Source: Gammaproteobacteria bacterium (GTDB taxonomy: Bacteria > Pseudomonadota > Gammaproteobacteria > Eutrophobiales > Eutrophobiaceae). Taken from it: 64,000 nucleotides of DNA. The stretch covers positions 1,600,001 to 1,664,000 of the forward strand of contig OZ250183.1 in the NCBI GenBank assembly GCA_965238225.1, read 5' to 3'. Of the stretch, positions 47,785 through 61,348 are shown piece by piece. The position numbers and the translations under genes were made by a program. The notes beneath the pieces are model-generated. The model was not told where the DNA came from. It did no database searches and worked only from the letters and a program-made list of their open reading frames with translations. Each line of letters starts with the position of its first letter. Positions within the stretch are counted from its first letter, which is position 1.

Positions 47785-47991
47785 GGGGCTGTCCCAGAAA
47801 CCAGTCCATTTCCTCTTTATCTCATTGTTTTAACAGGTTAAAAATTTGATATTAATGTATGTTTGTGTAGTTTTTTCTTATTAAAACGCCCTCACATTCC
47901 TTAAAAATAGCAGGAAATACGCTTTGGGAATACCATTAAATCTTCTTATATGTCATTTTGCCTAGTTCCAGAAATTCTCTATGTCGTTAAA
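47785..47991 (-). pseudogene. IS1595/IS1016 transposase C-terminal fragment plus right end
   Basis: FNDIENFWN*AK*HIRRFNGIPKAYFLLFL(shift)ECEGRFN...LLKQ* matches my recollection of the IS1016 C-terminus INGIENFWNQAKRHLRKFNGIPKxHFxLYLKECExRFN. Confidence 0.85.
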
Positions 47992-48003
47992 CAGGGCTAA
48001 ATA

Positions 48004-48031
48004 ATAAAGAGATCTGCATAGATCCCTTTAT
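48004..48031 (-). terminator. Terminator-like hairpin after RTX copy 1
   Basis: ATAAAGAGATCT...AGATCCCTTTAT, a variant of the hairpins at 53956 and 60856. Confidence 0.55.
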
Positions 48032-48105
48032 TGTTATTGTCTTAACTTAAACCTTTTATTTCACTTAACTCTTTATCTAAGCTATATCTGGTGTAATTTA
48101 AGATA

Positions 48106-51100
48106 TTAGGCAGTTTGCCATGTTTCAGTCAATACTGTTTGCAGGTTATCAGCAACATCTTGCGTTATGACATTACCTGCACCAAGTGGTACATCATAAG
48201 CTGCCATGGCATTGACTAATTTGTAGACATCATCTTGTAGTAACACTGATGAATCAGTTGTGATGCTGTCCAGCTTGTAGTCATTCTCTCCTCAGTTGGA
48301 AGAACCATAAAAAGGTTGGTACAGTTTTCGTTTCGTACCAACCGCTCACTGTCGCTTGATCATTGGTTCCAGCGATGGTGATTAGTAAGTCTGCATTATC
48401 ACCACGACTAAACCACAAGTCTTCTACTGATACATTGTCAAATTGTAATATATCATTACTCGCTGAGTAGTCCGTATCATAATTATAAATGGTTGTATTA
48501 CCGTCACCTAAAGAAAACAGATAAGTATCGTTACCGTCATCTCCAGTCAGATAATCCTGTCCTGCACCACCACTTAAGGTATCGTCACCAGCACCTCCCC
48601 ACAAGTAATCGTTACCGTTACCTCCGTACAGGGTATCGTTACCTGCATCACCACTTAAAGTATCGTCACCGATTAGCCTCCGCTATAAGGTAATCGTCAC
48701 CGATACCGCCATACAGAGTCATCGATGCCGTCATCTCCGTATCAAGGTATCGTCACCGGTACCGCCGTTCAAGGTATCGTTACCGTCACCGCCGTCTAAG
48801 ATATCATTATCGTTACCGCCGTATAGTGTATCTATGCCGTTTTGTCCGTACAGGGTATCGTTACCGTTACCTCACGAACTTAAGAGTATCCGTCACCAGA
48901 GCCACCGCCTAGTACATCATCACCGTTTTGTCCGTACAGCTTATCGTCACCGTCACCGCCATTTAAGGTATCGTTATCGTTACCGCCGTATAGTGTATCT
49001 GTGCCGTCACCGCCATTTAAGTTATCGTTGCCGTTACCGCCATATAAGTAATCACGACCGTTGCCGCCGTCTAAGGTATCGCTACCGTTAAATCCGTATA
49101 GTGTATCTGTGCCGTCACCGCCATTTAAGTTATCGTTGCCGTTACCGCCATTTAAGTAATCGTCACCGTCACCGCCGTACAGGGTATCGTTATTGTTACC
49201 GCCGTATAGGGTATCGTAACCTGTGCCACCACTTAGTACATCATCGCCGTTTTGTCCATACAGCTTATCGTTATCGTTATCGCCGTTTAAGGTATCGTTA
49301 TCGTTACCACCGTATAGGGTATCTGTGCCACTACCGCCACTTAAGGTATCGTTGCCAGTCCAGCCGCCTAAGATATCGTTACCCGCACCGCCTTCAAGCA
49401 CATCATCGCCGTTTTGTCCGTACAGGGTATCGTTACCGTCATCACCGTACAGGGTGTCGTTATGGTCACCGCCGTATAGGGTATCATCGCCGTTTTGTCC
49501 GTACAGGGTATCGTAACCTGTACCACCACTTAGTACATCATCACCGTTTTGTCCATATAAGTAATCGGTATCGGCACCTCCGTACAAATAATCGTCACCG
49601 TTACCGCCGTCTAAGGTATCGTGATGGTCACCGCCGTATAGGGTATCTGTACCGTCCTGTCCATACAGGGTATCGTAACCTGCATCACCACTTAGTACAT
49701 CATCACCGTTTTGTCCGTACAGGGTATCGTCACCGTTATCACCGTTTAAGGTATCGTTATCGTTACCACCGTCTAAGATATCGTTATGGTCACCGCCGTA
49801 TAGGGTATCATCGCCGTTTTGTCCGTACAGGGTATCGTAACCTGTACCACCACTTAGTACATCATCACCGTTTTGTCCATATAAGTAATCGGTATCGGCA
49901 CCTCCGTACAAATAATCGTCACCGTCACCGCCGTCTAAGGTATCGTGATGGTCACCGCCGTATAGGGTATCTGTGCCGTCCTGTCCATACAGGGTATCAT
50001 CACCTGTACCACCGTTACCACCGTCTAAGGTATCGTTAGTTACCGCCGTATAGGGTATCTGTGCCGTCCTGTCCATACAGGGATATCATTACCATCATCT
50101 CCAGACAAGGTATCGTGACCGTCATGTCCAGACAAGGTATCGTCACCTGTACCTCCAGACAAGATATCGTTACCATTGTTTCCATTCAAGATGTCGTTAC
50201 CAGCACCTCCAGACAAGTAATCATGACCATAACTGCCTTCAAGCACATCATCGCCGTTTTGTCCATACAGCTTATCATGACCGTCAGCACCGTATACGGG
50301 GTGGTATAAGGGATCATCATCGTAGTGACCGCCACTACCGTACAGGATATCGTTACCATCACCCCCATACAAGATATCGCTACCGCTATAGCCTCTCAAT
50401 ATATCGTTATTACTAGAACCATTGATGATGTCATCTCCATGGCCGCTTGTTGCCAATACGTTGGCATCTATATATGCCTTTGTCCATACAGTACCATCAG
50501 CAAACTCAGTTTGGTCTATTTGGAACCTTTGGAAAAGGTAGGAATTTTCATAGGGAAAGTAATTTTGAATCGTTATAGTTTTTGTCGTGTTATTATCATC
50601 ACTTACTTGTAATAGAAGATGATCATATGCGCGAAATATTTGAACATCCGTGGCGGCAATACCTTCTCCAAATTTCAAGATATCTGTGCTACTGCCTAGG
50701 ACACCGTCAGAGCCTACATCGGCATTATAAATAGTTGTATTACCGTCACCTCGAAAAAATAAATAAGTATCGTCACCGTGGTTTCCTTGCATGTAGTTTG
50801 TACCTTTGCCGCCGCTAAAGATATCGTTACCGCGACCTCCATACAAGGTATCGTTACCATCACCGCCATTCAAGACATCGTTGCCATTACCGCCGTATAG
50901 GGTATCGTTACCAGTACCCCCATTCAAGGTATCGTCACCGGTATCTCCAGACAAGATATCGTTACCGTCACCGCCGTACAGGGTATCGTTATGGTCATTT
51001 CCAACCAAGATATCGTTACCGCCACCGCCGTACAGGGTATCGTTACCCCCACGACCTTCTAATAGATCATTACCATCACCACCATTGATAGTGTTATCGT

Positions 51101-60492: not shown

Positions 60493-60855
60493 AGTTTGAT
60501 TTAGATTATGTTAAATCTAATTTATAAGGCGAAAGCTATATTTTATCGGTACTGTGTGAGGGTATTATGTTAAGTATTTTTGACCACAGACGGTCTGGTT
60601 TCGCAGCGCAGGGGGGGGCGAGAACGACTGTGACCAAGTTTACGGATGACCTTTAGGTGTATTTAAGTCTGTAAAATAGGAAACATATATGAAAAATCTC
60701 ATTGAATAAAGACGGTGTTGATTTTTAGTTAAAGTTTAAGATAAACCCTTATATTCACAAGGTTTACTATTCCACGATACAATAGATAGGATTTAAATAG
60801 ATAGGATTTAAATTAAAGACAGGACTAAATGTAGAATTAGAGGTTAATAAATAAT

Positions 60856-60883
60856 ATAAAGGGATCTATGTAGATCCCTTTAT
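60856..60883 (-). terminator. Terminator hairpin after the RTX copy 3 remnant
   Basis: ATAAAGGGATCTA-TG-TAGATCCCTTTAT within a block repeated from about 53914-54040. Confidence 0.65.
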
Positions 60884-60940
60884 TGTTATTGTCTTAAACT
60901 TAAACCTTTTATTTCACTTAAATCTGCTGTGATTAAGCTA

Positions 60941-61284
60941 TTAGGCAGTTTGCCATGTTTCAGTCAATACTGTTTGCAAGCTATCAGCAACATCTTGTGC
61001 TATGACATTACCTGCACCAAGTGGTACATCATAAGCTGCCATGGCATTGACTAATTTGTAGACATCATCTCTTCATCAAATTGTAATATATCATTGACTC
61101 GCCGAGTTCGTATCGTAATTATTAATGCTTACTCTATAATCTCTCCGGGAAAACAAATAAGTATCACTGCCGTTACCTCCTTACCAGGTAATCCTGTCCT
61201 GCACCACCGCTAAGATGTCATTACCAGCACCTCCATACAAATCATCGCCACCGCGACCTCCCAGTTAAGATATCGTCGCCATTC
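60941..61284 (-). pseudogene. RTX copy 3, 3' remnant with internal deletion
   Basis: Same terminal ~130 bp as copies 1 and 2 ([20 protein letters not shown]...WQTA*) preceded by broken nonapeptides. Confidence 0.85.
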
Positions 61285-61348
61285 TAAATCTACTCTTTAC
61301 CATCAATTGTCCTCGACAATACATTTCGGGTATTATCGGGGCAGCCCC
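61284..61348 (-). mobile_element. IS1016-like left end with the first transposase codons
   Basis: GGGGCTGCCCCGATAA terminal repeat, then ATG at 61303 encoding MVKSRF (cf. IS1016 MRKSRL) joined directly to RTX sequence. Confidence 0.65.

Follow-up and report, generated by a model that had tools for sequence, protein, structure and literature searches.

A transporter insertion sequence (tIS) retains its own transposase. tISs and MITE-type derivatives, as described in PMC9330008, hold passenger DNA between the ends of one IS. The transposon Tn7052 (ISEc69-mcr-2) is reported to have transposed with 8-bp AT-rich duplications (PMC7835479). At the cap locus found in Haemophilus influenzae type b, IS1016 borders a tandem surface-structure locus, and partial IS deletion can be stabilising, according to PMC5319370. 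The rtx locus of Kingella kingae is presented as RTX genes with insertion elements at their borders, presumed to have been gained by horizontal transfer (PMC8953716). Our search of openly accessible main texts, made without the organism name, found no paper that pairs 'RTX' with 'IS1016'; a genome paper describing the RTX expansion may exist. Here, we analyse a window, the whole stretch of 64,000 nucleotides from a gammaproteobacterial genome, in which IS1016-type ends bound an RTX block between gph and ygfX. Positions are those of the window unless marked as genome positions.

Results

The RTX block is enclosed by the footprint of a single IS1016 insertion, as confirmed by the IS identity of its ends, the agreement of its flanking 8-mers at seven of eight positions and the adjacency of gph and ygfX in congeners. 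The 3' part of the element (47785-47990, (-) strand) consists of the right terminal repeat and a decayed transposase C-terminus. It corresponds to positions 526-718 of a 718-nt DNA model built from external IS1016 copies (E 7.9e-26), and residues 162-194 of the ISEc75 transposase match it at 64%. The C-terminal sequence is interrupted by two nonsense codons (within 47950-47970) and by 1-nt gaps. The 5' part (61284-61348, (-) strand) contains the left terminal repeat, the leader and the first transposase codons (ATG 61303), which encode MVKSRF in place of the MRKSRL of intact relatives and pass directly into RTX repeat DNA at approximately 61284. This fragment gave no match to the model of external IS1016 copies. 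It is indirectly assigned as the probable 5' part of an IS1016-type element via sister remnants of the same genome only. It matches a 70-bp two-ended remnant (genome 262495-262564) at 84% over 43 nt (E 1.4e-5), and its best local score against three 5' remnants of the genome is 28, compared with at most 20 for 20,000 random 70-mers. One of these three remnants, at genome 900978, matches positions 5-116 of the IS1016 model (E 0.007). The 70-bp sister remnant resembles both ends of the block.

The block starts with GGGGCTGTCCC at 47785 and finishes with the inverted counterpart GGGGCTGCCCC, whose last nucleotide is 61348. This 11-mer terminus occurs five times in the 1.72-Mb genome, and four of the copies are the ends of two IS1016-type remnants. 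Both terminal repeats start with GGGGCTG and agree with each other at 10 of their first 11 nucleotides; the right end matches the consensus at 15 of 18 positions, and the left end has 14 matches with gaps. The two IS parts share the (-) orientation and form complementary, non-overlapping halves of 65 bp (5') and 206 bp (3'). Transposase homology, terminal repeats, a target duplication of the AT-rich, 7-9-bp kind and the empty site place the remnant in the IS1016 subgroup of IS1595. The original prediction had located the inverted termini, the flanking 8-mers, the MVKSRF start fused to RTX DNA and, on the same (-) strand, the nonsense-riddled C-terminus IENFWN*AK*HIRRFNGIPK, and all of these were found where it placed them. 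Its attribution of both ends to IS1016 also held, and its proposal of one split element is borne out by the orientation, the target duplication and the empty site in congeners.

The left copy of the 8-bp target-site duplication, TGAAATAA (47777-47784), directly follows the stop codon of gph (47108-47776, (+) strand), a HAD phosphatase gene whose best NCBIfam matches, MupP/PGP, all fall under their cut-offs. The right copy, TAAAATAA (61349-61356), lies beside the gene for a CptA/YgfX-family membrane protein (PF07254; 61367-61819, (-) strand). The 7/8 match is above chance, yet not overwhelming because IS1016 targets AT-rich DNA: 10 of 360 unrelated flank pairs agree at 7/8 or better, and a column model gives 1.2%. 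The right flank is also part of a short stretch from the ygfX 3' end that is duplicated locally (61349-61363 versus 61370-61385). gph and ygfX are adjacent in all seven congeners in which both genes were seen. Four of five metagenome contigs likewise carry an empty gph-ygfX site, and the fifth stops short of gph; one of the contigs seems to come from the G003 organism itself. The predicted empty site was thus found as gene adjacency, but not as a single 8-mer, for which the relatives compared, at 67-76% protein identity, are too distant. No same-species relative with the exact empty site was found, the best metagenome ygfX match being 74% identical. Both IS ends coincide with the exact borders of the lineage-specific insertion, and approximately 26 bp of intergenic DNA remain.

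What does the footprint enclose? The original prediction spoke of an RTX array; an RTX block is indeed enclosed, but its 13 kb hold only one intact gene, one gene with approximately 10 frame breaks and one 3' stub, all on the (-) strand. An old RTX 3' end with its UTR and a terminator-like hairpin (48006-48029) occupies 47992-48235 and is privately diverged. RTX gene 2 (48106-53456), the gene with frame breaks, is a collinear paralogue of an intact 1690-aa gene at genome 796572-801644 and is either a pseudogene or a noisy consensus. It is followed by inter-unit module 2 (53457-54038), which consists of a terminator, a shortened junction and an upstream region common to the T1SS-linked RTX gene, and then by the intact RTX gene 1 (54039-60092). 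Inter-unit module 1 (60093-61071) contains a young RTX tail (stop codon 60941-60943), a terminator-like hairpin (60858-60881) and an upstream region; it is 96.5% identical to genome 801642-802652, with differences mainly in short-repeat copy number. The degenerate old stub (61076-61283), a last repeat block, is fused to the transposase start. The RTX units are linked by an RTX tail-terminator-promoter module that is common to another RTX locus. This module has no Rfam RNA match and no plasmid match and was not detected in the 10 congeners searched. No IS DNA was matched between the RTX units within 47996-61283.

The 2017-aa product of RTX gene 1 contains only PF00353, in 48 stretches, and PF06594, ten times; its repeats begin at the N-terminus, and no catalytic or pore domain was found with Pfam. 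Against the RTX_toxin model it scores 930 bits, below the cut-off of 1000, and the match is carried by the repeats. The pore-forming or enzymatic domain of an RTX cytotoxin or hemolysin was thus not detected. The C-terminal region resembles the CyaA RTX C-terminus, and an ABC transporter with a C39 domain and an HlyD protein are encoded at genome 1247-1251 kb. Nonapeptide repeats, a C-terminal signal region and HlyB/HlyD in the genome are the features of a T1SS-secreted RTX protein, as which the product is predicted. The block most likely serves as an additional site of expression for a repeat-only, calcium-binding protein with predicted export by hlyB/hlyD; the surface/adhesion role is predicted from the domain content.

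The cargo is a mosaic of privately diverged edges and inner tracts that are near-identical to the RTX array at genome 796-815 kb. The stub at 61076-61283 is only 76-82% similar to its best paralogue. The IS-adjacent tail has a unique 13-mer fraction of 0.48, compared with 0.00-0.15 in other tails, and is alone among eight such RTX tails in being mostly unique sequence. In contrast, both inner tails differ from the tail at genome 802542 by 0-1 substitutions in approximately 232 nt, and identity to the array reaches 97-100% over ~50185-52280 (where a single 150-nt window falls to 93%), over 53935-54830 and over 60085-60680. Since the pieces that touch both IS ends are privately diverged, RTX DNA appears to have long resided inside the element. 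The stub and the old tail are successive portions of one RTX 3' end, joined across a near-invariant 70-bp stretch. Deletion of the inner 61071-48236 would leave a 728-bp element, a figure whose agreement with the IS size may be coincidence. Private differences are also present upstream of the old tail, over 330 nt (0.28), and in the 5' kilobase of RTX gene 2 (0.23-0.39). Uniqueness alone is no proof of age, because a segment upstream of the T1SS-linked RTX copy is unique as well (0.63). RTX gene 1 is not a simple recent copy, since over much of its length its similarity to any other locus reaches only 75-95%. Junction microhomology is 2-4 nt at most and uninformative.

The original prediction had called for a search of the genome for intact IS1016 copies, and no intact IS1016 transposase was found there. 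The only PF12762 match, at genome 1252784, was rejected as such a transposase; it is a different, partial IS1595-type piece with 29-35% identity. The remaining IS1016 remnants are all deleted derivatives, including two-ended ones of 70-116 bp. RTX loci total 48 kb, or 2.8% of the genome. None of the boundaries of the five other RTX loci bears a significant IS1016 end, and no second IS-bounded RTX block was found in the genome. At the 796-815 kb array, the site at genome 796350 was rejected as an IS end (score 15, joint seventh of 363 GGGGCT sites); three GGGGCT sites that are not recognised as IS ends score 16.

RTX loci with this domain were not found in nine of the 10 congeners. The congener G004 is IS-rich, with intact IS1016 copies and half elements around host genes. 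In G004, tsaD and plsY are approximately 200 bp apart; in the present genome an RTX block has reached that site without visible IS1016. serB, beside the RTX locus at genome 1174 kb, was not found in five congeners with the query used. G033, from another genus of the same family, has no IS1595 transposase and seven dispersed RTX loci, one of them at gph-ygfX. RTX genes at this site without IS ends would speak against the original prediction, and G033 partly provides this case; however, its block faces the opposite way, lacks any IS1016 trace and is probably an independent insertion. Across 80 RTX-homologue loci of other species, 1.32 Mb in total, no IS1016 was detected near the homologues. IS1016 is not supported as a general vehicle of RTX loci, given the five other loci without significant ends and the seven RTX loci of G033.

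The genome is closed, in a single contig, and 100% complete. A short-read contig, probably from the source sample, spans gph, the target duplication and the IS end (46900-47824) with 0 differences. The read comparison covered 46900-48880, and its two runs, X1 and X2, derive from a single sample, probably that of the source, and are non-independent. In the same short-read run, 92% of the sampled words of 60100-62300 were found. No listed contig or long read joins both IS ends. Several window alleles were not detected in collapsed short-read contigs. Among the private differences of RTX gene 2, 1-2-nt insertions outnumber deletions 19:8 (hand count, p = 0.052), and some of these differences may be consensus errors.

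Discussion

The locus resembles Tn7052 and Tn7560 (ISApl4), as these are described, in its end type, its approximately 710-bp element and an 8-bp AT-rich duplication outside direct ends (PMC12561309; PMC7835479), and the C-terminal transposase motif HINGIENFW of IS1016-subgroup elements is recognisable in its 3' fragment. Unlike these transposons, it retains no more of the IS than 65 bp of the 5' part and 206 bp of the 3' part, has no transposase and carries up to 13 kb of RTX cargo with an interior remodelled by recombination. A composite or pseudo-compound transposon has two IS copies flanking its cargo; no inner IS ends were found here, and a collapsed former composite transposon is possible. 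IS-driven amplification, which had been proposed by analogy with the cap locus, found no support: the direct IS repeats that separate cap-type units have no counterpart within 47996-61283, and the repeat unit is joined by RTX homology. Like tIS and MITE-type derivatives, as far as they are described, the locus has passenger DNA between two ends of one IS and would need transposase in trans. It differs from a tIS in its far larger size and in that no second copy shows the unit to have moved with its cargo; neither such a copy nor a cognate transposase, in cis or in trans, was found in the genome. The K. kingae locus is described as encoding a cytotoxin that is acylated and has rtxC and T1SS genes of its own, whereas the present locus encodes a repeat-only protein, and its T1SS genes are approximately 400 kb away.

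We propose, with a probability of about 0.58, that the block arose in two stages, in which an old IS with a short RTX 3' piece was later filled by RTX-RTX recombination. In the first stage, an IS1016-type element entered the AT-rich gap that separates gph from ygfX, two convergent genes, and generated the 8-bp duplication. The IS middle (~nt 66-525) would then have been replaced by RTX DNA while or after the IS family was active. This seed was probably a short RTX 3' piece (stub, tail and terminator) and possibly one whole gene. It may have arrived by an IS route, through an IS-RTX-IS composite or an IS-RTX circle that recombined into the resident IS, followed by inner IS loss, or by non-homologous capture into the IS; the balance between the two is nearly even and tilts slightly to the IS route. 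In the recent stage, RecA-type recombination between the seed RTX tail and near-identical tails, chiefly of the tandem array at 796-815 kb, would have inserted or converted full tail-terminator-promoter-gene units and expanded the block to 13 kb. The crossover point is blurred, and a complete gene of old age that received conversion tracts later fits equally well. It is conceivable, although unlikely, that an IS1016 derivative caught a short RTX 3' end, moved as an approximately 730-bp non-autonomous element and thereby set down an acceptor for recombination, into which giant RTX genes came later. The element is immobile today because no IS1016 transposase is left, and the locus is probably the fossil of a landing site and not a gene carrier that still works.

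Alternatively, a multi-gene RTX segment may have come in whole, as a single IS1016 composite or cargo element that later lost its inner IS parts, which stabilised it, and had its interior homogenised by gene conversion. Such a delivery is possible but doubtful. The outer ends do have direct-composite geometry with the duplication outside them, IS1016-group elements are reported to build such transposons (Tn7052, PMC7835479; Tn7560, PMC12561309), and the cargo begins within a gene, as if excised from a tandem array. However, two deletions would be required, each taking an inner IS end, although five of seven remnants in the genome retain both ends, and no second copy bears IS ends. The weak same-orientation candidate at genome 796350, which would place an IS end at the 796-kb array, scores below three sites that are not recognised as IS ends. 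Moreover, the inner modules are of much more recent date than the ends. The original prediction of a cargo element or collapsed composite that delivered the RTX genes is thus upheld in that RTX DNA has probably long been inside the element, but not for 13.6 kb as one load, because decayed ends stand against inner tracts that share 97-100% identity with the 796-815 kb array.

That the two IS ends are unrelated half-IS remnants flanking an RTX block that arrived otherwise, with a 7/8 match by chance, is very improbable. Half elements surround host genes in the IS-rich G004, G033 has RTX DNA at gph-ygfX without IS, and 1-3% of unrelated flanks reach 7/8, with the right flank in a local duplication. 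Yet the halves are correctly oriented and complementary, both resemble the same 70-bp sister remnant, and they mark the exact limits of the lineage-specific insertion, with ~26 bp of intergenic DNA left. It is also improbable, if less so, that an assembly artefact accounts for part of the inner size and content, with repeats of the 796-815 kb array joined wrongly or polished poorly at this locus. The long near-identical tracts shared with another locus, the lack of spanning reads and the approximately 10 frame breaks of RTX gene 2, compared with 0-2 in other RTX genes and with an insertion bias, would suit such an error. It is opposed by the closed, complete single-contig genome, the gph/IS junction in short-read contigs, the 92% of sampled words recovered in the same run, the clean 6-kb frame of RTX gene 1 with its locus-specific sequence and a stub that differs chiefly by substitutions. 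Even if an artefact were real, the IS ends would still adjoin RTX DNA.

IS ends around a large block are no proof of its transposition. The arrival of such large genes at new chromosomal sites is usually invisible, and the gph-ygfX locus preserves a readable record of it in the footprint of an IS, with edges that are old and an interior that is young. If the two-stage origin is true, dead IS shells could serve as landing pads for growing surface-protein repertoires. If the seed itself moved as a non-autonomous element, the locus would reflect transposon-seeded spread of a surface-protein family through a small genome, and the 796-kb array, which has a weak IS-like end, could be an earlier example. 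Insertion may also favour the gph-ygfX gap, because approximately 14 kb of RTX DNA lie there in both (2/2) of the family's RTX-richest genomes, and the parallel block in another genus makes this site preference testable.

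IS1016 footprint and host site

The RTX block at 47785–61348, between gph and ygfX, lies inside a single IS1016 insertion footprint. Every feature of the original prediction was recovered where it had been placed, and the structure, which ORF annotation overlooks as the prediction had said, is real and was well spotted. The 3′ IS part (47990–47785, minus strand) corresponds to positions 526–718 of an IS1016 model, 718 positions long, that was derived from eight external elements of this type (E = 7.9e-26); blastn against 72,556 plasmid-collection records gives 8 matches (N. gonorrhoeae and ISEc75). 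The opposite end (61348–61284, minus strand) has no match to this model of external elements. Its IS1016-type identity is drawn from sister remnants in the same genome. One of them, 70 bp long with both ends (262495–262564), is 84% identical to it over 43 nt; a second, at 900978, can be aligned with it across the start codon and in turn matches the IS1016 transposase 5′ region. The transposase begins with MVKSRF at this locus, whereas intact relatives begin with MRKSRL. Short-read contigs (depth 11 and 5) give two versions of the IS remnant at 47795–47941, with differences of one gap and of five substitutions, which suggests two haplotypes in the sample.

The proposed target duplication (47777–47784 and 61349–61356) holds at 7/8 positions. 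Because IS1016 flanks are AT-rich, they themselves served for the null; a match of at least 7/8 occurs in 10 of 360 unrelated ordered pairs of such flanks, and the chance under a column model is 1.2%. A gph orthologue is present in 7/10 congeners, the other three being incomplete genomes with no gph orthologue match, and ygfX follows it within about 40–160 bp in 7/7, with no RTX gene between them. The same arrangement is seen in 4/5 metagenome contigs, the fifth ending before gph. The single 8-mer is unreadable in relatives because protein identity there is only 67–76%. At the gph-side junction, a short-read contig, probably derived from the source sample, runs from gph across the duplication into the IS (first 40 nt) with zero differences; nothing physically joins the two ends.

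The closed 1.72-Mb genome, of which the window spans 1,600,001–1,664,000, contains no intact IS1016 transposase, and the element at this locus is dead, a fossil. Seven other remnants comprise two with the 5′ part only and five two-ended mini-elements of 70–116 bp, located at 262495–262564 (with a 7/8 target duplication), 233218–233333, 1568441–1568512, 1576990–1577079 and 1419143–1419232. The last two are identical in left flank and body, and the flank of the 1568441 element is similar to theirs; given these shared flanks, the three were apparently copied together with adjacent DNA. Five nearly full-length copies with the end type of this locus occur in the congener G004, and thus the family has been active in the genus. 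Elsewhere in the source genome (1252763–1254135), a partial IS1595-family transposase of another type precedes a Panacea/SocA antitoxin-domain gene.

Anatomy and age of the cargo

In the RTX sense, the IS 5′ part is followed by a degenerate stub (61076–61283), a young tail with terminator and upstream module, RTX gene 1 (54039–60092), a second module, RTX gene 2 (48106–53456), an old tail with terminator (47992–48235) and the IS 3′ part, all on the minus strand. Gene 1 is intact (2017 aa; PF00353 and PF06594 are its only domains of note), and gene 2 has about ten frame breaks. The edges of the block are old and its inside is young. No paralogue exceeds 82% identity to the stub, whose differences are mostly substitutions, and among the eight tails only the IS-adjacent one has a 3′ end that is largely private (unique 13-mer fraction 0.48 versus 0.00–0.15). 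By contrast, each inner tail departs from the tail at 802542 by 0–1 of about 232 nt, and identity to the tandem array at 796–815 kb is 97–100% over long inner tracts.

RTX DNA occupies 48 kb of the genome in six loci, of which one adjoins hlyB/hlyD (gph, ygfX, tsaD, plsY, serB and hlyB/hlyD are labels assigned here from family matches or recognised sequence). Over 450 bp, the sequence upstream of gene 1 shares 99% identity with the stretch that separates hlyD from its RTX gene, and this likeness suggests that the hlyB/hlyD-linked locus is the source of the gene 1 promoter region. An 80-bp segment of the inter-unit module (60577–60656) is 72% identical to intergenic 89598–89680, has no Rfam match and is possibly a REP-like repeat. 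Past the terminator (about 60780–60815), the module has a 15-bp tandem repeat whose copy number differs from that in its copies at 802 kb and 810 kb.

Origin of the block

We propose, with a probability of roughly 0.58, that a short RTX seed lodged inside an IS1016-type element, via an IS route or non-homologous capture, and would then have been filled through homologous recombination with other RTX DNA. The stub and the old tail follow each other within an RTX 3′ end, and the element without its inner 12.8 kb would measure 728 bp, a pattern expected if a short seed took up DNA by homologous recombination. Two points oppose a clean version of this course: gene 2 carries private differences in its 5′ kilobase as well as upstream of the expected crossover, and for much of gene 1 no close copy exists elsewhere. 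Transposition of the whole cargo, followed by collapse and gene conversion, is a possible but rather unlikely course. Transport of cargo by IS1016-group elements, in composite form and with 8-bp AT-rich duplications, is described in PMC7835479 and PMC12561309, and the locus looks like a collapsed composite transposon; however, the predicted delivery of the whole 13.6 kb by the element is unsupported, given near-identity of the inner tracts to the array and old edges.

Bacterial indels are usually biased towards deletion. The small indels of gene 2 lean the opposite way (19 insertions versus 8 deletions by hand count, p = 0.052), and part of its decay may therefore be consensus error. An assembly artefact as the explanation of the inside, with its intact gene 1, is improbable. 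Least probable is a pair of unrelated half elements. In G004 (922007–926588), two inverted IS1016 5′ halves surround about 4.1 kb of host genes, showing that half elements can border genes without being one element.

The Hib cap locus is flanked by IS1016 (PMC5319370), and IS-flanked rtx loci exist, according to PMC8953716. With tIS and MITE defined as in PMC9330008, the locus does not qualify as a transporter IS; nor does it qualify as a composite transposon proper or as cap-type amplification. The suggested IS-driven amplification of RTX genes lacks support, as no IS DNA was found between the IS ends. A literature search without organism name, with most subscription journals outside its scope, found no paper with both 'RTX' and 'IS1016'.

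RTX spread in the family

IS1016 is not demonstrably the vehicle of RTX spread. The other five RTX loci of the source genome have no significant IS1016 ends, apart from one weak candidate at 796350. Their 18-kb array sits between tsaD and plsY, a gap of about 200 bp in G004. PF06594 occurs in 23/121 family genomes, with 47 matches in the source genome, 54 in G033, a family member of another genus, and 10 or fewer in the rest. G033 has no PF12762 match, counts of the IS1016-end pattern like those of the control, and 7 dispersed RTX loci free of any IS1016 trace. One of the seven is a roughly 14-kb RTX block (C1 651700–666100) between gph (651028–651687) and ygfX, which we read as an independent insertion because its RTX gene has the opposite orientation, an N-terminal extension and lipoprotein-like genes upstream.

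The gph–sdhC distance is at most 4.5 kb in 90/92 family genomes, the source genome and G033 being the exceptions. The 92 are those of 126 in which gph and sdhC are collinear and close on one contig; missing matches, split contigs, distant positions and opposite strands were dropped, and fragmented RTX-bearing loci would be among them. With 5–6 dispersed RTX loci per genome, the chance of a shared site is roughly estimated at 3–10%, and a landing preference for gph–ygfX is therefore suggestive only. Between ygfX and sdhC, the window has a small ORF (73 aa, 62019–62240, ending EPTRYGDWEKRGRCIDF), with a counterpart in G033, that we take to resemble DUF1674/SdhAF4 proteins. Further away in the window (31248–38736, minus strand, and 39238–46196, plus strand), a two-partner-secretion-like pair, with a 602-aa outer-membrane-type protein and an 1800-aa filamentous haemagglutinin-domain protein with long repeats, is found beside a cluster of cyclase/FHA, PP2C phosphatase and 1466-aa Ser/Thr kinase genes.

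The source genome and G033 are 75% identical in hlyB and 60% in hlyD; HlyD of the former reaches 44% at best against congeners. One RTX protein of G033 begins with a glycoside hydrolase 108 and a peptidoglycan-binding domain, and its RTX family is suggested to be of polymorphic-effector type. In the source genome, an RTX fragment (1478799–1479505) adjoins the 3′ end of tRNA-Ser(gga), the RTX locus at 1174–1183 kb is some 600 bp away from tRNA-Ser(cga) (1183463–1183552), and both tRNA ends run on into the same short sequence, a hint of island-type integration.
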